Of a DNA stretch of 64,000 nt, positions 662 to 57,243 are shown in pieces; positions within the stretch are counted from its first letter, which is position 1; every line of letters starts with the position of its first letter. Below the pieces are notes generated by a model, which was not told the DNA's origin, did not search any database, and saw only the letters and a program-made list of their open reading frames with translations. Location of the stretch: the IMG/VR virus record IMGVR_UViG_3300027969_000040; one strand, 5' to 3'. The translations under genes and the position numbers were made by a program. Source of the stretch: a virus. Taxonomy: Duplodnaviria; Caudoviricetes.

Positions 662-1057
662 TTAACCGTTAATGTAATTTGGATATGCTTTATTAAACTT
701 ACGCATAATAATGCCAGCTACGCTATTAGCTTCGTTTTCTTCATTGCTACCAGTTTCGCCACTGTTAGCATTGAGTTGATTTTCTTGATGTTGTTTAAAA
801 TGAACAAGTTCGTGTGCCAGTGTTCTACAAATATCAATTGGATGTCTGCGATCTATACCCAAACTAATGGTCATATCTGATGGGGAAAAACTACCAAATG
901 TAGGCTGCTCTTGTTGATTCATTGATTTGAAAATGTTAATTTCGGGTAAGTTAGTTAGTCCTAGTTCTTCCATGGCCAATGGAAGTAAATCCTTTATTGC
1001 ACTGTATACAACTTGGTAGGATTCCTTTGATTCAACTAGGAATTCAACAGCTCTCAT
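662..1057 (-). CDS. HExxH zinc-metallopeptidase-like protein with N-terminal MRAVEFLVE leader
   Basis: LAHELVH plus downstream ENEAN. Probable start 1057 (TAATG coupling) rather than 1096. Confidence 0.7.
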   Translation of the reverse strand: MRAVEFLVESKESYQVVYSAIKDLLPLAMEELGLTNLPEINIFKSMNQQEQPTFGSFSPSDMTISLGIDRRHPIDICRTLAHELVHFKQHQENQLNANSGETGSNEENEANSVAGIIMRKFNKAYPNYING

Positions 1058-4000
1058 TATTCTTGATCTCGCCAACGTTTCTCTGCAGAGTCCCAATATC
1101 TTCCACCAACTACATTTTTGGTTTCTGTTTTAGATTCTTCATATGGTTGCTCTTGTGTATCAGGCTCATTGGTAGCCGGTACAACTTGATCGTAGTCTTT
1201 CATGGTCAGAGTATTACCATTACTACTTAGATTTACTAGTTTTTCTGCCACATCGTGCAAATCTAAGTCAGTTTTTGCATCTTCTCTAGCAAATTCCATT
1301 ACACGCAATAGCATAGGAACATCCATGGTGACAGTATCAGTTGGGTTAGATGATGCTTCTTCGTCTAAGTTTATTAATTTTAGATAGTGGCGCTGTAGAT
1401 ATTCTTTAGCCCATTTTGCATCATCAAATAATGGACCAACACGTACACCTGAATGATTTAACACTTCAAATCTTTCGCCCTTGCTACCGTCCGGTCTCAT
1501 GATATTAACTTTACGTACACGCGGTCTGCCAGATTTAATTTCTTCGCCCTCAGGAATCATACCATTGCGGGCACTGTCTTCTAATTCTAAGTATGCAGCC
1601 TTGGCTTTTTGATAGTTGGTCTCGTCACCAATTTTATCGTAATGTTGCATCAGGTCGTGCAGTCGATCTGCTTCTTTAATATAATCGCGCATGCTCATTT
1701 TAGCAGGTTCGGCAGATTCGTTTTTATCTTGCCACCAGTAATTACCGTTAACAGGTTTTGATTTAGGCAACGATGGTGTTTTATTCAACATACGGCTACG
1801 TGCAGCTAGCGCCATTTTTTTTAATGTTTCTGGATCTTTGCCACTTAGATTAGGATGAGTGGAAGACTGGAAACGTTTAATCCATGTGTCTGGGGAATCG
1901 TTTGCAGTTAGTTTACCTTCGTCTATTTGTTGTGCTAGTATGCGTTCGACTTGTTTAATCCAGCTATTTAAATTATTCGATTCAATACCTTGTGCATTGT
2001 TTCCAACCATGCCTGCAACAGAATTAATAGCATCACTTACACGATCAGACCCATATTTTAGTAAATCTGGTCGTTTTTCTGTAATGCCCTTAACAATGGC
2101 ACTTATAACAGAACTATTCGATACGCCCTCCGCCACACCTTGCTCTTTAACCAAACGTAATGCTGTAGCAGGTAGATTGTTGGCTTGCCCGCCATCGTCT
2201 AGGTCAATGTAATAGGTTTTTGGGGCACCTTTAAAGGCACCGTGCTTAATTTCTCTAATCCAACCGGTCTTACCAGCGTGTTCGCCTTTGACAACTTTTA
2301 CCTTCTTGGCTAGCCCCTTGCCTTCCGCCACACCTTGCTTGTCAATACTTCCCCGTATACCGCATTTAGCACAATGATATTGTGTTAGCGTTGGGTGTTC
2401 TTTTTTCTTTACAGGACCATGGCAATGTGGGCAGGTACCTGTGGCCATTGCCTTGACTTCTTTACTCATATCTTCTTCGGAGCCTTCCGCCACACCTTCA
2501 TTAGGTTTACAGTTGCGAACCTGGCCGCCATTCTTACCTTTCTTAGTACCTACTGCATGTTTGCCTGGCCAGCAACGAGTAAATCCGTTGCTATCTTTGG
2601 CACCTTTCTTAATCTCATTCAAGTTGCCGTGTGTTTGACACATGCCGCAGTCTTCACACACCATTTCCATCTCTACTGATTCGTTGTGTTTTTTCTTGCC
2701 AGCACAATGTGCTCGTTGGCTGAACCCTTTGGGGTGACTACAGTTGATACTGTTCTTGTATTTTTGGCTCCACTCCTCTGCCACACCTTGTGCCGGTGCT
2801 TGAGGTTTAGATTGATTTTTTTGTACCCATTGCATTACTTGAGTTTTTAGTTGTAATGGAACTGTATCTTGTTTACCGTTTACAAAATCTACTACATCTA
2901 TAGTTCTGTTACCAAATGGGCCTTCGCCAGCGGAGTTAGTGCCTACAATACCTTGTGCATTTTGTCCAGCCGTACCTAAGTCTGGATCAGACCCTTTTGC
3001 TAAAAATTTATCAAGTCCTAATGTACTAGCAGTATTAGGTGGCACCCAAGACATTGATGTAAAAGTTACATTGTCGTATGCTGTATGCCCGCCCAATCCT
3101 TCACTTCCTCTATAATCTGCTTTAATATAATTACCGTCGGCCATTTTGAAATAAACTGTGCGAGGTGCAAACATATCTAATTCATTCAATTGATCCTTTG
3201 CTACACTGTGCTCGCCGGTACCTATATAGTGATGGTCGTGTACTTTATAACCTTTTTTGCGATAGTGAGCAATGGCAGATTTAATTGCCTTATCACGATT
3301 GTCGCTAGTTACCTTCACAGTTTTTTGTATAGTTTCTTTACGTTTGCTAACCATTGCGTGATTAGGGTCTGTAACAGTTAAACTAATACGATGTACAGAT
3401 TTTGTGCTTTCGTCAACTTGATCTCCGTTGCCAACTAATCTAATTAGATGCCCTTGTTTAAAATATGTTGGGTGATACATTACTACATTAAAGGTACTAT
3501 CGTTGTTATAGGAAATCTTTACATCACCTCCAGCAGCAACAATCTTACTTTTTATATCTTTTGTTGCTTGTGCATTTTTATTGGGCCCATACATAGCATT
3601 AGCCATTTGGTCTGCTAATTGTAATAGATATTGTTTCTCGTCTCCGCCACCTTCATCTGGTGCAAACTCTTTTAATTTTCTTTGAGCATCAATTTGTGCC
3701 AATTGCTTTCTAGCAGACTGATCTCCGGAGTGGGCGCGATCTATTAGCTTTGCCATGTCAGCTTTTAATTTGGCTATTTTATTATCGATTGAATTAATAT
3801 TACCTTTGACAACGTCATCTGGTACTGCGACTTTTGCACTGCCTGGGAAGTCTCTAAATTCGCCTTCGTTCATTACTCTGCTACTTAAATCGTTAATTTG
3901 AATTTCAAGATTTGCAATTTGTTTTTGATCTTTAACTTTAACTGGATATGGTTTTCCATTCCACTCAAACTGTTGCGCACCTTGTTTAGCGGCTGCAAGA

Positions 4001-4767
4001 TGTGCTTTTGCAAAAGCCAATGCTTCCTCTGTTGTACCAAATACTTTACTGGCTAGCCATTTAAGAGTTTTGTAAGTTATTACTCCACCTAATACTGCCA
4101 TTGCTCCTGTCAGCAATCCTGCACCTAGTGCCGGAGCAAATAAAGCAATACCCCCGCCAGAGCTTGCCATAGTAACACCAGCAGTGGAACCAGTTAATCC
4201 TGCCCCTACACCAACCCCTAATGCTTTGTTTAACTCGGTGTCGTGCATAAACGAATCTGCATTTCTGAGTTTATTTCCTAGTTCACTTCCCGGAAATAAT
4301 GCTTCGTTTACTTCAGACTCGTTCTTAACAAGTCCCATATCTTCAAGGTACTCAACTGCCTTTAATAAATTGGGTGTTGTTTTTTCTGTAGTCTTACCGT
4401 TATGTGTAATTCTTAATACATTTGTATCGCCGTCGGTACTGATAGTAGCAGTAACTTCTGAATTATCTGGATCTATGTAACTTAATATTTCTTTAAATTT
4501 ATCTTCTATAGTTTCTTTTTCTTTTTTATCAGCGTAAGTTCCGTTTTTACCTCTGATTAAATTGTGTACTTTGCCTTCTTTGTCGGTTCTGGTCATTGCG
4601 GCAGGTTTAAGGAATGCAGCATCGTATGCAACAGCCGTTCCGAATTTCTTTTCCAATGTGGAAAGGTCGTATGCTTTTGCTTCTTTGTCTTCGGTTTGAA
4701 TTGTTTTATTTTTAATCTGACCTAAAAATTCACGATCGTCATCGCTGAACATATCTAATACATACAT
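1057..4767 (-). CDS. 1236-aa mosaic protein of short modules (KOW-like, Cys/Zn ribbons, helical modules) joined at xxE sites
   Basis: Four GVAE linkers; CxxC pairs (CEDCGMC, CPHCH..CAKC); KOW-like KVKVVKGEHAGKTG. Confidence 0.85.
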   Translation of the reverse strand: MYVLDMFSDDDREFLGQIKNKTIQTEDKEAKAYDLSTLEKKFGTAVAYDAAFLKPAAMTRTDKEGKVHNLIRGKNGTYADKKEKETIEDKFKEILSYIDPDNSEVTATISTDGDTNVLRITHNGKTTEKTTPNLLKAVEYLEDMGLVKNESEVNEALFPGSELGNKLRNADSFMHDTELNKALGVGVGAGLTGSTAGVTMASSGGGIALFAPALGAGLLTGAMAVLGGVITYKTLKWLASKVFGTTEEALAFAKAHLAAAKQGAQQFEWNGKPYPVKVKDQKQIANLEIQINDLSSRVMNEGEFRDFPGSAKVAVPDDVVKGNINSIDNKIAKLKADMAKLIDRAHSGDQSARKQLAQIDAQRKLKEFAPDEGGGDEKQYLLQLADQMANAMYGPNKNAQATKDIKSKIVAAGGDVKISYNNDSTFNVVMYHPTYFKQGHLIRLVGNGDQVDESTKSVHRISLTVTDPNHAMVSKRKETIQKTVKVTSDNRDKAIKSAIAHYRKKGYKVHDHHYIGTGEHSVAKDQLNELDMFAPRTVYFKMADGNYIKADYRGSEGLGGHTAYDNVTFTSMSWVPPNTASTLGLDKFLAKGSDPDLGTAGQNAQGIVGTNSAGEGPFGNRTIDVVDFVNGKQDTVPLQLKTQVMQWVQKNQSKPQAPAQGVAEEWSQKYKNSINCSHPKGFSQRAHCAGKKKHNESVEMEMVCEDCGMCQTHGNLNEIKKGAKDSNGFTRCWPGKHAVGTKKGKNGGQVRNCKPNEGVAEGSEEDMSKEVKAMATGTCPHCHGPVKKKEHPTLTQYHCAKCGIRGSIDKQGVAEGKGLAKKVKVVKGEHAGKTGWIREIKHGAFKGAPKTYYIDLDDGGQANNLPATALRLVKEQGVAEGVSNSSVISAIVKGITEKRPDLLKYGSDRVSDAINSVAGMVGNNAQGIESNNLNSWIKQVERILAQQIDEGKLTANDSPDTWIKRFQSSTHPNLSGKDPETLKKMALAARSRMLNKTPSLPKSKPVNGNYWWQDKNESAEPAKMSMRDYIKEADRLHDLMQHYDKIGDETNYQKAKAAYLELEDSARNGMIPEGEEIKSGRPRVRKVNIMRPDGSKGERFEVLNHSGVRVGPLFDDAKWAKEYLQRHYLKLINLDEEASSNPTDTVTMDVPMLLRVMEFAREDAKTDLDLHDVAEKLVNLSSNGNTLTMKDYDQVVPATNEPDTQEQPYEESKTETKNVVGGRYWDSAEKRWRDQE
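2128..2790 (-). repeat. Dispersed repeat (C/G)AAGGTGTGGC(G/A)GA(A/G)G encoding (Q/E)GVAE
   Basis: Copies at 2128-2142, 2322-2337, 2483-2498 and 2776-2790; degenerate copy at 5751-5766 (QSVTE). Confidence 0.9.
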
Positions 4768-4768
4768 A

Positions 4769-5308
4769 TTAACCTCCCTGCCCTGACATATTTTGTTTTA
4801 CTGTGTTTGTAAGTGTCCCCAATTGGCTTGACGATAAGCCAGCATTGGCTAACATCTGTGCCATTGCTGCTAATCCTTGTGGATTAATTGGCGGTGTTGG
4901 TTTTGGTGTTTGCCCCGGCGTAGAACCAACTGTTGTTGTTTTTGGTGCAGTGTTGGCCGCAGTAGTAGGCGGTGTAGTCTGACCAGCAGATGTAGTTGGT
5001 GCAGCTTGCCCTGCAGATGCAGACGGTGTAGTTTGAGCTTGCCCTGCAGATTGCCCTACAGTTCCGACTACACCTACTTCGTTTATACTTCTTACATATT
5101 TTTGGTCTTTAAAATATTCAACCAATGAATCAACACTATCGTGATAATCGATTCCTGATTCAAGCAAATCATTTACAGATTGTTTAATGAAATGTCTTTC
5201 ATTCTCAGTTATACCGCCGTATACATTTTTATCTTCAACGATATCGTTTACACGTACCAGGCCTTCTACAATCCTGTTTAATAGTGTTGATGAAATAGAG
5301 TCAATCAT
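4769..5308 (-). CDS. Hypothetical protein with Thr/Pro/Ala-rich C-terminal linker
   Basis: 179-aa ORF in the operon; IVE/ITE/INE junction motifs. Confidence 0.8.
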   Translation of the reverse strand: MIDSISSTLLNRIVEGLVRVNDIVEDKNVYGGITENERHFIKQSVNDLLESGIDYHDSVDSLVEYFKDQKYVRSINEVGVVGTVGQSAGQAQTTPSASAGQAAPTTSAGQTTPPTTAANTAPKTTTVGSTPGQTPKPTPPINPQGLAAMAQMLANAGLSSSQLGTLTNTVKQNMSGQGG

Positions 5309-6267
5309 TTGCTGGTCCTTGACTTGGGACGGCCACCAAACAATTCACCTGCTTGTTGTCCACCCATATTAGTTGCCATACCACCACTTGAACTAGCACC
5401 TGCCGTTGATTCAAATTCTGCATCTGGCGCATCTACATCGCCTATTTTACTAGAGTTCATTGTGATGCCTTTATATTTAATTTTTAGATTAGAATACATG
5501 TTACCACGTTGTCTTAAAAAATTACTTAACCATTTGTCGGCCTGTATAATAACTTGTTTTGGTGCGCCTCCCCAATTATATTTTTCTATCATTGGTGTTA
5601 GATCAAATTCCTTATACTCACCACCCATTAGCATAGATGCCATTAATTTATTTGGATCGGTCTGATCGGCTGCTTTTGCTAACCCAGGTGCTGCTGCTAC
5701 TGCTGCGGCTGCACCAGCGCGCCCAAGGAATCCTCTACGGTTCATATCAGCTTCCGTCACACTTTGCTGACCTAATACAGGACCAACTTGAATACCTTTG
5801 CTTGCTAGTAAATCTTTAATACGACCGGCTCTGTTACTAGCGGCTTCATACTCTTGCTGTGTTTTGGCATTTTTTACAGCCATGACTGCTTGTTGGTATT
5901 GTTGTTTCCACTCATTAGCACCGGGTGTTTTGATAGAGGAGCCGTCTGGATAATCGCCTTCCTCTACAATGCCAAGAGTATTCATGTTCTCGTCGGCAAC
6001 TTTGTTCTCCATATGAGAACCTAATTCGTATTCTAACCATTCTTTTACATTACGTAAGTAATCATTCGCCAAAGTTATCTTTTCGCTTGCCCACCCCGGT
6101 ATACCATCTTCCTCGCTGATTTTTTTAAGCATTCTATGCAGTTCCATGGCATTTGATGCAGAATGATAACATTCTTCTCTGGCCATTTGTACTTCGTGGT
6201 CCATATGCATAGACTCAGCTGCTTGGACAATTGGGTGTTTTTCGGGTATAAAATCTATAGGTTTCAT
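5305..6267 (-). CDS. Mosaic protein with an internal twin-arginine signal-like segment
   Basis: 320 aa; DHEVQMAR..WASEKITLANDYL module; internal SVTE-ADMNRRGFLGRAGAAAAVAAAPGLAKA. Confidence 0.85.
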   Translation of the reverse strand: MKPIDFIPEKHPIVQAAESMHMDHEVQMAREECYHSASNAMELHRMLKKISEEDGIPGWASEKITLANDYLRNVKEWLEYELGSHMENKVADENMNTLGIVEEGDYPDGSSIKTPGANEWKQQYQQAVMAVKNAKTQQEYEAASNRAGRIKDLLASKGIQVGPVLGQQSVTEADMNRRGFLGRAGAAAAVAAAPGLAKAADQTDPNKLMASMLMGGEYKEFDLTPMIEKYNWGGAPKQVIIQADKWLSNFLRQRGNMYSNLKIKYKGITMNSSKIGDVDAPDAEFESTAGASSSGGMATNMGGQQAGELFGGRPKSRTSK

Positions 6268-6304
6268 AGTAGTAAATTGGTTAGTAATGTATTTATGTTA
6301 CAGT

Positions 6305-7903
6305 TTAATACGCACTGTTGGACTTGATGATAACTTGATCAATGGGTAAACTAGCCACTGAGTTATTAAGGCTAGTCCAGGACTCGATTCCTGTATTCTT
6401 ATTAGGGGTAAACAATACTTTATCGTTTTTAACTTCACCAGTAGCTATTCCTACTGGTTTACCTTTCCACCAAACAACATCGCCGCTTTTAACACGCTCT
6501 GCTTTATTCAAAAATTGGTCTGGTGGTGTAATGCCTTCTGTTACTTTATTTTCTAACTTATTAAAGAATATTACAATTGCTTGTTTTACATCTTCGGCAG
6601 CATATAATCTATCATTAGTGATAGCCAATCGTTTAGAAAACAGATCTCCGTCTTCTTTACTTTTAGCATATTCCTTTGCTGCAAGACTAGAAAAATGTGC
6701 TCGCGCTGCATATAGTCTACGTAATTCCATCCATTCTTCTTCGTCTGGCGTGGGTCTTGGATCGTGTTGCAGCAAAGACAATCGCTTCATTCTTTCTGCA
6801 TATTTTACCAACTCCACAGCTACTTTTTCTGCAAGGTGACCTTCGTATGGTTTTTCTTGTATAGGGGTATAGTCATTGACATCGTCCCAATTTGGATCTA
6901 CAAGATCGCCTTCGGGATCGAGCTCGGAGCGTGACAAGTATTGAACAAGTTTTTTTGCTAGATTGCTGTTGGTATCAGACATTTTTAAAAAGGCAAGGCG
7001 TCCTGCATTCAGCCCCCTTTCTGCAAATAATCGTGCTAACTCTACTAATTCCCTAGTATCTTTTTCAACTTCAGGATCTGACTCGGGGTCTAAGAACGTT
7101 CTTGTAAATTTTATAATTTCGCTGGCATATTTATAAGGTCTGTAGTCTGTTACACGTTGTTTAAAATCTTCTTCTAAGTTAGTTGCAGCGTCAACAACTG
7201 GGTCATATGGTATTTTATTAAAAATATGTACCAACTCAGGGGTTGCTTGCCCGTATAATTGTGTTAAGAATTCTTTACTGGCATTTTCATCTTCCCGCAC
7301 CATATTCCATAACATCCTGCATTCAGTGCCATGGCTAGCATCGTATGTCTTTCCATTGATATTAACCTGTGCTGGTTTTTCTGCTACAACTATTACATAG
7401 CTATGTTTGTCTGCGGTAGTTGATTCTGCAATGGATTTAAATGTTAAGAATGGTTTAAGATCACCAACATTTTTACCAGGCGGTATTCTGGACTTCCTGG
7501 GTGACCCGTCTTTTTTCGGTTTGGGTGTAAATTGTGTATAGACACTATCAACTTCTAGTCGTTGTTTATCTGGTTCGCCTACAGCAAAAATGGCTATTGT
7601 TTTACTAGGATCAAATCCTAATATTCTTGCATAATCTTGAATTTCGTAAGGTTGATTGGCTTCAACAATACGATCGTTATGTACACCTGCGGCATGCATT
7701 AGCTGTACTTTATCAGTAAAGCTAAATGGACTTTTAGGTAGATCTACATTATTACTAGTACCAATGAATACATTATCACGACCAAATTTTCTTTGCAGTT
7801 CGTTAAAAACCGCACTATGCCCTTTATGAAACGGCTGGAACCTTCCTGGGTAAATAACCACAATGTGGGTTGCTTGGGATTCAAAAAGGTCAAATACAAA
7901 CAT
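6305..7903 (-). CDS. HIGH-motif nucleotidyltransferase (cytidylyltransferase/NMNAT-like) fused to extra modules
   Basis: IYPGRFQPFHKGH near the N-terminus; later modules follow NLEE and KVTE junctions. Confidence 0.75.
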   Translation of the reverse strand: MFVFDLFESQATHIVVIYPGRFQPFHKGHSAVFNELQRKFGRDNVFIGTSNNVDLPKSPFSFTDKVQLMHAAGVHNDRIVEANQPYEIQDYARILGFDPSKTIAIFAVGEPDKQRLEVDSVYTQFTPKPKKDGSPRKSRIPPGKNVGDLKPFLTFKSIAESTTADKHSYVIVVAEKPAQVNINGKTYDASHGTECRMLWNMVREDENASKEFLTQLYGQATPELVHIFNKIPYDPVVDAATNLEEDFKQRVTDYRPYKYASEIIKFTRTFLDPESDPEVEKDTRELVELARLFAERGLNAGRLAFLKMSDTNSNLAKKLVQYLSRSELDPEGDLVDPNWDDVNDYTPIQEKPYEGHLAEKVAVELVKYAERMKRLSLLQHDPRPTPDEEEWMELRRLYAARAHFSSLAAKEYAKSKEDGDLFSKRLAITNDRLYAAEDVKQAIVIFFNKLENKVTEGITPPDQFLNKAERVKSGDVVWWKGKPVGIATGEVKNDKVLFTPNKNTGIESWTSLNNSVASLPIDQVIIKSNSAY

Positions 7904-8864: not shown

Positions 8865-9590
8865 CTATTGATTTTTCTGATTGATTATAGTTTGATTTAC
8901 TGACCCAATTAAGGATGGTGATAACATTTTGAGTATATCTAACATCTTAATATCATTAAGATATATGAAGCCGCCTTGAAAATATTTATATCTATCCGAT
9001 AGCCTCTCCAATATAAACTTTGATATTTTTATCTCTCCATCTAAATTTTTTATATAATTTACTAGTGCATGTCGATCCTCAAGTTTGATGAAACCTTCTT
9101 TTAAGCGTACCTTATACGGATGATCACTTTCTTTTTTAGTGATAATAAAACCTTGATCTAACAATTTTTTGTCCGAATCAAATTCTAACAACGAAACCGA
9201 ACTCAATCTAGTTTTATGCTCGCTTAAAATTTCATTAGCTACATTATACAAGTAAGATTCTGAATCTGCAAATACAGTGAAAGAATAATAACTAATTCTA
9301 AATTTTACTTTAACATTGGTTGGTGTTGTATAATATTTGTAAAAGTCTTCTAGTGTTTTTAAACTTGCATTTTGATTTTTGTATCTGACAAATCTGTCTG
9401 TGTTTCTATAATTAAAAGCCTTCACAGTTGATGGTAGTTTATCAGCAGTTTTACAATTAATCAAACATCTTGCACCTTGTAAATTATAAGTTAAACTGTA
9501 ACAAAACTCGTTAAAAAATTTCTTCTTAGTATAAAGAAATCGCAAGTCTCGATTTAGTTTACTCCACTCTGATAAATCCATTTTTGTCAA
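8865..9590 (-). CDS. Hypothetical protein
   Basis: 241-aa ORF overlapping the 3' end of clpA. Confidence 0.75.
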   Translation of the reverse strand: MTKMDLSEWSKLNRDLRFLYTKKKFFNEFCYSLTYNLQGARCLINCKTADKLPSTVKAFNYRNTDRFVRYKNQNASLKTLEDFYKYYTTPTNVKVKFRISYYSFTVFADSESYLYNVANEILSEHKTRLSSVSLLEFDSDKKLLDQGFIITKKESDHPYKVRLKEGFIKLEDRHALVNYIKNLDGEIKISKFILERLSDRYKYFQGGFIYLNDIKMLDILKMLSPSLIGSVNQTIINQKNQ

Positions 9591-11862
9591 CTGATGGTAC
9601 CCCTTCGATCAATAGCTGCATGTTATAGGCAATTACAGTAAAAGTCAAATCTTTTTCCTGGCAATCTACATTAATAATAGATCCGTTTTCCAAATTCTCA
9701 AACAATATTTTTTTACTAATAGGTACTTTAATCAAATCGTTAATTACACGATTCAATGGCCTTGCGCCCATTCTCTTATCAAACCCTTTTTCAACTAGTA
9801 AGTCAACGGCACGTTCAGTTAGACGCAATTTAATTTGTCTATCGGATAGTAAATCATTGATTTCTGACATAAATTTAGCGACAATCTTTTTCATGCTAAA
9901 CTGATCTAATGTTTTAAACTTACATATAGCATCAAGTCTATTTCGAAACTCGGGTTTAAAAAATTCCTTAACTGCCTTATCGTCCTCACCTGTGCGCTCT
10001 AACGATTGACCAAATCCAATGGTATTGCGTTCGTTATCGGCAGCGCCTAGATTACTAGTCATAATTAAAATAGAGTTACGTGCATCGGCTTTTTTACCAT
10101 TGCTACCAGTAATAAATCCTTCATCCATAAATTGCAACAAGATATTTGTTACATCAGGATGAGCTTTTTCAATCTCATCTAATAGGATAATTGAGTTTGG
10201 ATTTTGTTCTAAAGCACTAATTAATAATCCACTGCCAGCTGCTGAATCTTCATATCCAACATACCCAGGAGGTGCACCGATTAACTTAGCCATGCTATGT
10301 TTTTCTTGGTACTCACTCATATCGTAGCGAACCATCTTCATTGACAAATTGGTTGCAAGTAACTTAGCTAATTCAGTTTTTCCAGTACCAGTTGGCCCCA
10401 AGAATAAAAAGCTACCAATTGGTTTGTTAATTGATTTAATACCTGCTTTACTTACGAATATTCGCTCTAACACAGAAGTTACGGCATCCTCTTGACCGTA
10501 CAGCCCTTGGTTTATATTGATTTCTAAATTAACAAGGCTATTAGTATTATCACTGCCAATTTGATCAACTGGTATCTTAGTAGCGCGACTTAGTGCTTCT
10601 ACAATCTGCGATTTGCCTAATACAAAGTCTGAATCTTGCTTGATTTGTATTTTTTGTTTAGCACATGCAGTATCCATTAAGTCTATTGCTTTGTCTGGCA
10701 GCTTTTTGTCAGGTTGATATCTAATGCTATAATCAACGGCGGCATCAATTGATTCATCTGAAATTTTAATGTTATGGAATTTTTCAAAATTTAATCTTAT
10801 ACCTTTAAGTATAAGTTTCGAATCACTTGCACTAGGTTCGTCTACAGTTAATCGTTGAAATCTACGCATCAATGCTCGATCTTTTTCGAAGCTTTGTACA
10901 TATTCATCCCATGTAGTAGATGCGATAACTTTAATCTTGCCCTTAGTTAATGCAGGTTTAATCATGTTACTAAAGTCGACCGAGCTAGAAGAGCCACCGC
11001 CAGCGCCACGCATCTGATGTGCCTCGTCGATGAATAGTATAGTTTTTTCTTTCATTATCAATGCTTTGATAACATTCTGAAATTTTTCTTCAAACTCGCC
11101 TCTATACTTACTTCCAGCTAATAAGCTACCTATATCTAAGTTATACACAGTATATGACTTTAGATATTCTGGTACATTACCGTCTACTATATTTTTAGCA
11201 AGTCCTTCTGCTAACATTGTTTTACCAACGCCCGGATCACCAACTAATAGGATATTGGCTTTATTACGTTTAGCCAATATATGAGACATTTCTGTTAGTT
11301 CAAACTCTCGTCCAATAATAGGATCAAGTTCACCTTTCTTGGCCAAGTTGTTCAGATTTGTACAAAACTCATCTAACATTTCTTCGGCACGCTCTGCATT
11401 TATATTTGGAGAATTTAAATCCGACTCGGTATTAAATTTTTTGTATAATTCCATTAGGGTTGCACGATCAATTCCGTACTTTAACATAAAATAGAATGCA
11501 TAGCTATTTGATTCCATTGAAATGCTTAATACCAAGTCAATGATTTTAATACGGTTAGATCCGTGAAACAACACTTGTGTTAGTGCTCTATTAAATACAC
11601 GTTCTAACGTTTGTGTTTTTCTTGGAGTATGCGATTCTTCGACTACTAAATGTGTTTGTGCATTTAAATAATGGCTTAGTTCACCCACCAGGCCGTTGAC
11701 ATCAAAATTTAATTTTATCAATATCTTCTTAAAAGGACTATATTGAAAAATAGCCAATGCTAGATGTTCTAAAGTTACATATTCATGTTTAAGCGACTTA
11801 GCAGCCTCGCTGGCTTTAAGTATAATTTCTTCAATCTCTGCATTTGGTCTCATTGACGACAT
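9559..11862 (-). CDS. clpA: ATP-dependent Clp protease ATPase subunit, ClpA-type
   Basis: Clp N-domain (HEYVTLEHL); Walker A motifs GDPGVGKT and GPTGTGKT; Walker B motifs FIDEAH and LLDEIEK; IGF loop (TIGFG); no ClpB middle domain. Confidence 0.92.
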   Translation of the reverse strand: MSSMRPNAEIEEIILKASEAAKSLKHEYVTLEHLALAIFQYSPFKKILIKLNFDVNGLVGELSHYLNAQTHLVVEESHTPRKTQTLERVFNRALTQVLFHGSNRIKIIDLVLSISMESNSYAFYFMLKYGIDRATLMELYKKFNTESDLNSPNINAERAEEMLDEFCTNLNNLAKKGELDPIIGREFELTEMSHILAKRNKANILLVGDPGVGKTMLAEGLAKNIVDGNVPEYLKSYTVYNLDIGSLLAGSKYRGEFEEKFQNVIKALIMKEKTILFIDEAHQMRGAGGGSSSSVDFSNMIKPALTKGKIKVIASTTWDEYVQSFEKDRALMRRFQRLTVDEPSASDSKLILKGIRLNFEKFHNIKISDESIDAAVDYSIRYQPDKKLPDKAIDLMDTACAKQKIQIKQDSDFVLGKSQIVEALSRATKIPVDQIGSDNTNSLVNLEININQGLYGQEDAVTSVLERIFVSKAGIKSINKPIGSFLFLGPTGTGKTELAKLLATNLSMKMVRYDMSEYQEKHSMAKLIGAPPGYVGYEDSAAGSGLLISALEQNPNSIILLDEIEKAHPDVTNILLQFMDEGFITGSNGKKADARNSILIMTSNLGAADNERNTIGFGQSLERTGEDDKAVKEFFKPEFRNRLDAICKFKTLDQFSMKKIVAKFMSEINDLLSDRQIKLRLTERAVDLLVEKGFDKRMGARPLNRVINDLIKVPISKKILFENLENGSIINVDCQEKDLTFTVIAYNMQLLIEGVPSVDKNGFIRVE

Positions 11863-11872
11863 TACAGTTCCT

Positions 11873-12724
11873 TTATGTTAATAAATTTTCTAATGCTTTA
11901 TGCTGATCCGATGTAATAGTCGACGGAACAGTTAGTGAAATTTCAACATGCAGATCGCCACGTATAGGTTGATTTACATCCCATAACCCTTGAGATGGAA
12001 TTCTAAATTTAGAATTATTTTGTGTACCCGGCGGGATTCTAATTTCAAATTGTGTATGATCTAACCCTGACACCATTGCCTTTGTTCCTACTACAGCATC
12101 GATGCAATTAACACTTATTGTTTTTATTAGATTCAACCCGGCTATTACAAATTCAGGATGCTGTCTTATTCGTAAATCAACTAGTAAGTCTCCAGGCGGC
12201 AAGTTAGAATGTGAAGTATCACCTTTTCCTTGGTATCTAATTTGCATACCAGTTTGAACTCCCCTGGGGATTTCAATCTCTACAGTTTTATTTGATCCAT
12301 TTGAATTTCGGACATTAATATGATGCGATTGAGTGTTAAGTGTTGATTCTAAATCTAGTTCAATTCCTACCCTTAGGTCTGCATTTTTAGCAGGTTGCCC
12401 GTGATGTCTGAAATTAAATCCTCCTGCAAATTGCCGGAATAGATCATCAATACCACCACCGCCACCACCAAAACTAAAGTGATGAAAATTACCACCGCCA
12501 CCACCTTGCCCAAACATTTTTTGTTGTTCCCATTGGGCACGTTTTTGTGGATCGGATAGTGTTGAGTATGCTTCCTGTATCTCTTGGAATTTATTTTGAT
12601 CACCACCCCGGTCTGGATGATGCTGCATAGCCAACTTTTTATACGCTTTCTTAATCTCGTCATCGCTCGCGTTAGCGTTGACACCTAAAATATTAAAATA
12701 ATCAGTCATAGTTATATAGTACAA
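11873..12724 (-). CDS. dnaJ: DnaJ-class co-chaperone, type II/CbpA-like (no Zn finger)
   Basis: J-domain with HPD (HHPDRGG), G/F-rich linker, C-terminal substrate-binding domain. Confidence 0.92.
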   Translation of the reverse strand: MYYITMTDYFNILGVNANASDDEIKKAYKKLAMQHHPDRGGDQNKFQEIQEAYSTLSDPQKRAQWEQQKMFGQGGGGGNFHHFSFGGGGGGIDDLFRQFAGGFNFRHHGQPAKNADLRVGIELDLESTLNTQSHHINVRNSNGSNKTVEIEIPRGVQTGMQIRYQGKGDTSHSNLPPGDLLVDLRIRQHPEFVIAGLNLIKTISVNCIDAVVGTKAMVSGLDHTQFEIRIPPGTQNNSKFRIPSQGLWDVNQPIRGDLHVEISLTVPSTITSDQHKALENLLT

Positions 12725-56755: not shown

Positions 56756-56857
56756 TCAAGCGGCTAGTAAAACTGCTGAGTCATTAGCGGCTTGACGTCC
56801 AAAACGGAAGTTTTTGCCCATAGTAACTTTTACAGTACCTGTTGTATTTGCGTTTGC
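56756..56857 (-). other. tmRNA tag reading frame ANANTTGTVKVTMGKNFRFGRQAANDSAVLLAA*
   Basis: Translated from the GCA after TAAAT to TGA; 33 sense codons. Confidence 0.75.
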
Positions 56858-57013
56858 ATTTACGGATTTTGCGTCTGCAACCAAGCTTCGTCTTTCTATG
56901 CTATGAGCATAGCGACTAAAGTTACCTTAGTCCTGCGGCTTCTGCATTGCCGAGCTGTCCACTCATTTACTTGTTGCTCTGTCGAAACCAGGGCAGGCCC
57001 ATCAAAAAGAAAC

Positions 57014-57148
57014 TTACCATTTACCAATTGGACAATGTGCAAATGGTATTAAAGTTTTAGCCGGCATGTAACATCCGCACTTGTTGCAAACTTTTCGATC
57101 AGTATCAAAATGCTCACATACTATACAAATTGTGTACTTGTCGTTCAT
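57014..57148 (-). CDS. 44-aa Cys-rich protein inside the tmRNA intervening sequence (MNDKYTICIVCEHFDTDRKVCNKCGCYMPAKTLIPFAHCPIGKW)
   Basis: Manual translation; AAGGA SD; CxxC..CxxCGC..K..CP.GKW pattern (DUF6171-like). Confidence 0.8.
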   Translation of the reverse strand: MNDKYTICIVCEHFDTDRKVCNKCGCYMPAKTLIPFAHCPIGKW

Positions 57149-57243
57149 GAATTCCTTTTTGGTGGACCTGGCGGGAGTCGAACCCGCGTCCAGAACACTT
57201 TTCTCTTTGCTTCATACAGCAATAACTTTTATTTATCTCCAAA

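Follow-up and report, generated by a model that had tools for sequence, protein, structure and literature searches.

Twin-arginine translocation (Tat) signals are textbook N-terminal elements, the few accepted exceptions being the Rieske proteins of streptomycetes and FecR. What, then, would such a signal be doing in the middle of a phage protein? The question is raised by an open reading frame (ORF) at 5305..6267 (-) of a 64,000-nucleotide stretch of phage DNA with nearly all its genes on one strand (IMG/VR record IMGVR_UViG_3300027969_000040; this whole stretch is called the window here). The ORF list and the translation give a modular protein of 320 aa, P0001, in which a sequence-only reading of the window had noticed a Tat-like segment behind a putative cleavage site, to be exposed either by proteolysis or by an internal translation start. 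The answer that we favour, at a probability of about 40%, is that the segment is a portable Tat cassette which a prohead protease of the T4 type would expose by cutting after a glutamate (Glu).

The Tat cassette of P0001 and its relatives

The cassette occupies residues 173-199 of P0001 (5671..5751, -), where ADMN is followed by RRGFLGR, a hydrophobic core (h-region) of 13 uncharged Ala-rich residues and AKA, the predicted signal-peptidase site. The RRxFL motif, the Ala-rich core and the AxA site reported earlier are thus all present; the interval first given, 5671-5768, spans residues 167-199, and the cassette itself covers 5671-5751. The arginine pair (RR) stands at residue 177 of 320 and so is not N-terminal; just ahead of the cassette lies SVTE (residues 169-172), and Met175 is encoded by the ATG at 5745-5743. 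Judged by its sequence, the segment 173-199 carries every feature of a Tat signal. Searched for in all six frames of the window, a simple Tat pattern (RRxF[LIVM], 12 or more uncharged residues, AxA) turns up a single time, and it is missing from 100 mononucleotide and 100 triplet shuffles alike; these 200 shuffles rule out a chance motif. By profile, the P0001 copy scores 16.7-16.9 bits with TIGR01409 (cut-off 16.7 bits) and 7.6 bits with PF10518 (cut-off 22.7 bits), the weak score being due to NRRGFLGR in place of SRRGFLKG. Both full-length homologues, P0002 and P0003, lie above the two cut-offs (PF10518 27.9 and 28.1 bits; TIGR01409 21.5 and 23.1 bits), and among 9 further cassette proteins 5 exceed the PF10518 cut-off and 4 reach 20.4-22.2 bits. 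It may be added that P0003 carries the automatic NCBI name 'Twin-arginine translocation pathway, signal sequence'; the motif has therefore been flagged by machine already, its internal position not.

A profile-free exhaustive search with residues 175-320, which take in the cargo domain behind the signal, gave 33 representative proteins, 16 with the signal, 1 with a signal fragment and 16 without any signal. In the signal-less representatives either a QGVAEG joint or a leader, for instance MKTLRDYINLIE, leads straight into the cargo. Since about half of the cargo representatives lack the signal, it is an optional cassette and not a part of the domain. When 19 signal-bearing proteins are compared, RR and the F of the motif are found in 19/19, S at -1 relative to RR in 17/19, D at -3 in 17/19 and E at -4 in 18, the E of the window copy being at -5 because of one extra Ala. 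The relatives read S-R-R-G-F-L-K/R, with AHA, AQA, ARA or AGA as the AxA; the h-region varies in sequence and stays uncharged, the AxA is kept, and these Tat features are conserved across 30-45% divergence of the cargo. Uncharged stretches of 12-18 residues (24 in L031) make up the h-regions, whose Kyte-Doolittle hydropathy over 19 residues peaks at 0.7-1.45, where the usual value for a membrane helix is 1.6. Tat signals are typically low in hydrophobicity (PMC13673990). Given values under the membrane-helix range and the conserved AxA, a stable membrane anchor is, as judged by sequence, unlikely.

The depth of the cassette in the chain differs widely. For 15 of the 19 relatives the distance from the chain start to RR exceeds 50 residues (RR positions 53-455), and the cassette is N-terminal only in P0135, P0139, P0147, L025, L027 and L028. 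P0147 begins MSEDLSRRDF, whereas P0139, L025 and L028 consist of leader, Tat signal and cargo; in P0139 the signal follows directly on a 9-residue leader, and an ATGA overlap with the gene before it settles where the protein starts (the PHROGs gene context of this protein was uninformative). As it is N-terminal in some proteins and deep in others, the same cassette is found in both settings. In L028 (231-590, -; 120 aa) leader and Tat signal are followed by the lipobox LSGC, which replaces the AxA; L028 is likely a Tat-exported lipoprotein, and the lipobox makes sense only if the protein is exported. L020 (1-1239, -) and L030 (2-1207, -) have the cassette before a low-complexity Gly/His-rich cargo.

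Portability was followed with a degenerate DNA pattern for RRGFLKGAGA, which matched 15 loci in IMG/VR. All 15 matches are phage proteins and RR is kept in 15/15, so that its conservation, here and in the 19 relatives, favours the sequence-only reading. In 11 of the 15 the cassette is 169-605 residues away from the first Met, and 3 follow a leader. The cassette precedes at least 8 different types of cargo, namely the D-P-N-K-L domain found in P0001, a Gly/His-rich region, several domains without assignment and two giant proteins, one of which (L026) combines it with the polyvalent-protein domain LPD22. As a control, the same pattern was searched in bacterial genomes, giving 118 matches, of which 116 have their upstream sequence complete. 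Open codons before RR number 31 in the median for bacteria as against 224.5 for the viral set. At least 100 open codons precede RR in 11/14 viral as against 11/116 bacterial cases (Fisher p = 7e-8) and a Glu lies within -5..-3 in 12/15 as against 15/116 (p = 2e-7), both p-values overstating independence as the viral copies share ancestry. Glu at exactly -4 is found in 9/15 of the viral matches and 18/19 of the relatives, as against 2/116 in bacteria, and is thus specific to the phage proteins. The bacterial matches show that S or T at -1 and a hydrophobic residue at -2 belong to Tat signals in general, and 14 bacterial matches have Met at -4 (minimal signals), the place where the phage proteins have Glu. 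The phage copies therefore resemble bacterial Class I/II Tat signals in S/T-R-R-x-F-L-K, in a weak h-region of 12-18 residues and in the AxA or lipobox, and differ from them in lying mostly 170-600 residues inside the chain with a nearly invariant Glu at -4 and Asp at -3. On these comparisons, the cassette appears to be a portable module in multi-module, probably late, proteins of a group of jumbo phages of the T4 superfamily.

Module joints, leader and late expression

P0001 is built in the order leader, N-module, middle module, Tat cassette, cargo domain and C-terminal tail. The leader MKPIDFIPE (6241..6267, -) ends in I-x-E and resembles the T4 capsid-targeting sequence, MKTYQEFIAE (PMC8442874), which gp21 removes by cutting after L/I-x-E (PMC9026906). 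Leaders of the type M, 4-11 residues and [LIVFM]-x-E begin 107 of the 149 retrieved relatives that start with Met (MKPTDFIPE, MRATEFVTE and MKVYQIVE are examples). The N-module (residues 10-103; 5959..6240, -), delimited by homologue matches and alignment, is conserved, ends GIVEE and is common to more than 300 proteins with differing downstream modules; the homologue search with P0001 gave 336 matches, mostly spanning just the first 25-30% of the query (the first ~90 residues). A helical hairpin is predicted for it at low confidence. The full-length AlphaFold2 model, with a mean pLDDT of 46, is too poor for use; in it the cassette falls outside the predicted helical modules.

The middle module (GDYPDGSS ... 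GQQSVTE; 5752..5958, -), as delimited by alignments, is optional. It is missing from P0003 (250 aa), in which DMSRRGFL comes directly after GIVEE, and it is swapped in P0002 (299 aa) for another module ending QGVAE, which is again followed by DMSRRGFL; in P0144 the cassette is preceded by the same middle module as in the window. Because relatives swap or delete the preceding module, the cassette can be placed exactly at a module boundary. Compared with the relative on a 348-kb contig, the middle module is an exact in-frame insert (5752-5958, -, against L006:10270-10420) with GGAAG, a Glu codon plus G, at both its ends; this fits an exchange of modules via recombination at the joint codons, although 5 nt may also be chance. 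The Gly/Ser-rich C-terminal tail (5308..5409, -; from alignments) ends in ELFGG and basic residues. It is common to relatives without the Tat cassette and stands behind other modules in P0005, P0123, P0020, P0031 and P0100, each time directly after x-x-E. P0123 (locus L001) consists of N-module and tail only, and P0005, P0020 and P0031 have inserts of other kinds. The ending (E/S)LFGG with a basic run closes many otherwise unlike modular proteins, P0105 included; perhaps the tail, too, serves in targeting or binding.

Every homology breakpoint in the protein family comes directly after x-x-E, that is, after IVEE, after SVTE or GVAE, and after EFE, VTE or VAE, and (Q)GVAE(G) joints recur along the chains of many relatives. 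A literature search found no description of the GVAEG joint for phages. Glu172 (5752..5754, -), the residue that closes SVTE, is by the conservation of Glu in the relatives the proposed P1 residue of a cut between V-T-E and A. The x-x-E junction before RRxFL first noticed in P0001 recurs in related phage proteins, with Glu at -4 in 18 of the 19 relatives. Their P3 residue, mostly V, I, L, M or F, is V in 9, T in 3, M in 3, F in 2, I in 1 and S in 1; the junction reads V-T-E in the window, mostly V-A-E elsewhere and T-N-E or T-D-E in two relatives. The modules behind the cassette also occur in signal-less proteins, which suggests that the modules act separately: this holds for the tail and for a zinc-ribbon module common to P0141 and the 1236-aa ORF of the window (BLASTP 2e-34).

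A motif resembling the T4 late promoter, CATAAATA, lies at 6290..6297 (-), 29 nt upstream of the start codon of P0001; the T4 late-promoter consensus is TATAAATA. ATAAATA occurs 16 times on the coding strand of the window as against 3 times on the other strand (among others at 6296, 7927, 18905, 33611, 34767, 39659, 42441, 42447, 46606 and 53218, -), and for 11 copies a start codon follows at a distance of 12-30 nt, among them the starts of tail-fibre genes, of the 320-aa gene and of the neighbouring 532-aa gene. The late-promoter-like motif is the only sign, and an indirect one, that P0001 may be present in the virion.

P0001 is recorded on a 260-kb contig. The 348-kb contig has the same gene order, namely DnaJ, ClpB, glycosyltransferase-like gene, cytidylyltransferase-like gene, Tat protein, a 179-aa gene, a giant modular gene and then PolB. 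The nearest cultured relatives of its PolB are those of Sinorhizobium phage Phosso (51%) and Agrobacterium phage Atu_ph07 (45%), both jumbo members of the T4 superfamily. Each encodes a Peptidase_S77 (gp21-type) protease, at 94.6 and 77.5 bits (cut-off 27). No homologue of the Phosso protease was found on the 260-kb or 348-kb contigs among the matches listed, which were taken up by closer relatives, and no cultured relative with the P0001 gene was found in 50,697 phage records. P0001 and its family thus resemble the T4 internal proteins and Alt in the leader of about 9 residues ending hydrophobic-x-Glu, in the late-promoter-like motif, in the Glu joints and in belonging, by PolB, to phages of the T4 superfamily. 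They differ in that the T4 internal proteins are single-module and cut once, whereas the phage chains seen here have many modules, (Q)GVAE(G) joints and mostly Val at P3, and in that one of the predicted released pieces would begin with an export signal.

Cleavage after Glu weighed against other explanations

In the reading that we favour, the 320-aa protein would be made late, with its leader resembling the T4 capsid-targeting sequence, and a prohead protease of the gp21 type would cut it at the module joints after Glu. A cut after Glu172 would create a new N-terminus 4 residues before RR (3 in the relatives), leaving A-D-M-N-R-R in the window and D-(M/I/L)-S-R-R in the relatives, a spacing of the length found in minimal natural Tat signals. 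The Tat system of the host would then export the released piece and signal peptidase I would trim it after AKA, the product being a free periplasmic domain of about 87 aa. Such a cleavage explains the phage-specific Glu, the breakpoints at x-x-E and the presence of the downstream modules in signal-less proteins, and the T4-like leaders, the late-promoter-like motif and the gp21-type protease of the cultured relatives fit it. Several points weigh against it. A prohead protease was absent from the window and from the retrieved loci, also when the Phosso protease was used as a tblastn query, and the junctions differ from the L/I-x-E motif of T4. In profile score the P0001 copy ranks last in its family; it is also the most divergent and stands barely at the TIGR01409 cut-off. 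The conserved E-D-x-S could merely be inherited along with the cassette. In the small leader-cassette proteins the signal is already N-terminal and would compete with packaging in the head, and no precedent for Tat export of an ejected virion protein was found in the literature. Besides, we infer the whole chain of events, from the cleavage and its enzyme through head packaging to export, and also whether export would take place in the producing or in the next cell.

On the last choice, a two-stage address can be drawn up, whereby the protein is loaded into the head, the protease uncovers the Tat signal and the piece is re-exported to the periplasm of the next host. We regard this version as distinctly doubtful; the proteins made of leader, signal and cargo, already N-terminal, argue for export in the producing cell. 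Two address labels in series are known from the bipartite transit peptides of the thylakoid lumen, in which the first peptide is cut off in the stroma and a Tat signal is exposed. P0139, L025 and L028 are built in this way, but organism, protease and first compartment (stroma as against phage head) differ, so this is an analogy only. The processing of polyvalent proteins has been proposed to route domains to different targets (Iyer et al. 2017, PMC5512222). The chains studied here resemble these in having many unrelated modules, with LPD22 in L026, whereas P0001 has no MPTase or other defining domain according to Pfam, its neighbours included. That paper does not mention a twin-arginine or signal peptide, and in our literature search no link turned up between twin-arginine signals and jumbo phages, or phage proteins that are ejected or lie inside the head.

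How else could a signal at this depth come to work, or be present without working? Internal initiation at the ATG at 5745, the other route offered by the sequence-only reading, would yield a small protein of its own, with its Tat signal N-terminal in the ordinary way, and Met is indeed found at that position in the window, P0002, P0003 and P0007. The codon is not conserved, however. Two residues before RR the 19 proteins have M in 9, I in 8 and L in 2; the 16 distinct DNA copies have ATG in 6, ATA in 3, CTC in 3 and CTA, TTA, ATC and TTG in 1 each, so that a usual bacterial start codon (ATG or TTG) stands there in just 7/16 copies, and P0100, which has yet another cargo, lacks any M, I or L before its cassette. 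A hydrophobic residue at -2 is, moreover, normal in bacterial Tat signals as well. The GGAAG noticed 6 nt upstream is present, but it is unlike the AAGGAG-type sites that precede about half of the genes of the window and is forced by the Glu-Ala/Gly junction codons, which leaves no other ribosome-binding site. As a general mechanism an internal start is largely refuted by the codon variation and the want of a ribosome-binding site, and we hold it to be extremely improbable. The strongest competitor, though still doubtful, is that TatBC uses the internal signal directly, in the manner of FecR and with no phage protease: the N-terminal modules would stay in the cytoplasm and the C-terminal part would cross the membrane and be released after AKA. 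An internal Tat signal behind a folded N-terminal domain is an accepted class of substrate (Class V), FecR keeping its signal, which follows a folded cytoplasmic domain, as an uncleaved anchor (PMC13673990). Direct use needs neither an added enzyme nor a packaging step and is just as compatible with the conserved AxA and the lipobox variant, two helical modules are predicted (at low confidence) ahead of the P0001 cassette, and the polyvalent-type proteins L026 and L029 have an internal cassette with no Glu before it. The likeness to FecR ends at the anchor, however, which the known internal-signal examples keep uncleaved, for the phage cassette appears too weakly hydrophobic to serve as one (0.7-1.45, below 1.6) and retains a putative signal-peptidase site. 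Direct use also leaves the phage-specific Glu at -4 and the x-x-E breakpoints unexplained, and would in some proteins carry zinc-ribbon and tail modules along to the periplasm, though not in their signal-less relatives. We favour cleavage over direct use.

The remaining two explanations deny the deep copies a role in Tat export. The cassette might function only when N-terminal, the deep copies being silent passengers of module shuffling or decaying. It would agree with this that the P0001 copy scores under the Pfam threshold and has, off consensus, N in place of S, GR in place of KG and one more Ala, and also that the cargo lacks the signal in about half of the representatives. Decayed intermediates are not seen, though: the cassette is either intact or cleanly absent, with the domain joined to the linker, and internal copies outnumber N-terminal ones by about 4:1 and stay intact across diverged DNA with different codons, so we consider this unlikely. 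Less likely still is a Tat-independent, membrane-interacting element of an ejected virion protein, for example in a DNA-entry channel. Ejection proteins of other phages do insert into host membranes, and a Gly/Ala-rich hydrophobic stretch of some 60 residues, free of any RR motif, stands in the neighbouring 1236-aa ORF, but the hydrophobicity of the cassette is too low for membrane insertion, and affinity for membranes leaves S-R-R-x-F-L-K, the AxA, the lipobox and the Tat scores above threshold unexplained. A family of phage chains with a stereotyped Tat signal hundreds of residues inside, always behind a Glu, would be a new kind of Tat substrate, and it would add sequence evidence for a cutting of the (Q)GVAE(G)-punctuated late proteins of these jumbo phages into pieces that are routed separately. 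Should the pieces travel in the head, they could be delivered to the periplasm of a new cell before any gene expression, the likely uses being superinfection exclusion, envelope remodelling or counter-defence. As the cassette is short and sharply delimited, the idea lends itself to a direct test.

The cargo domain and other genes of the window

The cargo domain of P0001 (about 80 aa, residues 200-286; 5410..5670, -) starts with D-P-N-K-L and ends AEFE. An AlphaFold2 model from a 27-sequence alignment (mean pLDDT 79.5) predicts the order strand-strand-helix-helix-strand-strand. The domain has no family match in Pfam, PHROGs or NCBIfam, and its predicted fold gave nothing at E <= 0.001 with Foldseek against the PDB and nothing below E = 0.05 in the AlphaFold DB clusters; with VIA-align the best Z was 5.5, to generic folds of the same strand-helix order, where the noise level of the tool is 7-8. 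In P0131 and P0143 (with signal) and in P0068 (without signal) the cargo stands behind a cytidylyltransferase-like domain, and the gene adjoining P0001 in the window (6305-7903, -) is cytidylyltransferase-like. This fusion in relatives and adjacency in the window suggest a functional link of the cargo to the cytidylyltransferase-like protein.

The genes of the window also include collagen-like tail-fibre genes and a ClpB-type double AAA+ ATPase (9559-11862, -; phrog_4871, E = 1e-239). The ClpB-like gene is adjoined by a 283-aa gene (11873-12724, -), at whose place a relative with the same gene order has a DnaJ homologue. The 1236-aa ORF (1057-4767) carries its Gly/Ala-rich stretch, which is glycine-zipper-like, at ~4018-4200 (-); it is possibly a membrane-active module of the giant protein. 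At ~2668-2820 (-) the same ORF has a Cys/His module of about 45 residues starting EEWSQKYK, which is also present in the relatives P0004, P0098, P0073 and P0101 and matches small stand-alone hypothetical genes of T4-like cyanophages such as S-SM2, S-CAM9 and P-TIM68 at 59-80% identity. Against cultured phages only single small modules of this ORF match, in T4-like cyanophages; to go by the stand-alone matches, modules of these chains also travel as genes of their own. At 56756-57221 (-) lies a tmRNA gene of the circularly permuted, two-piece kind, found with RF04321 at 88 bits (gathering cut-off 47) and in agreement by ARAGORN. Permuted tmRNAs occur in alphaproteobacteria and cyanobacteria, and this gene may hint at the group to which the host belongs.

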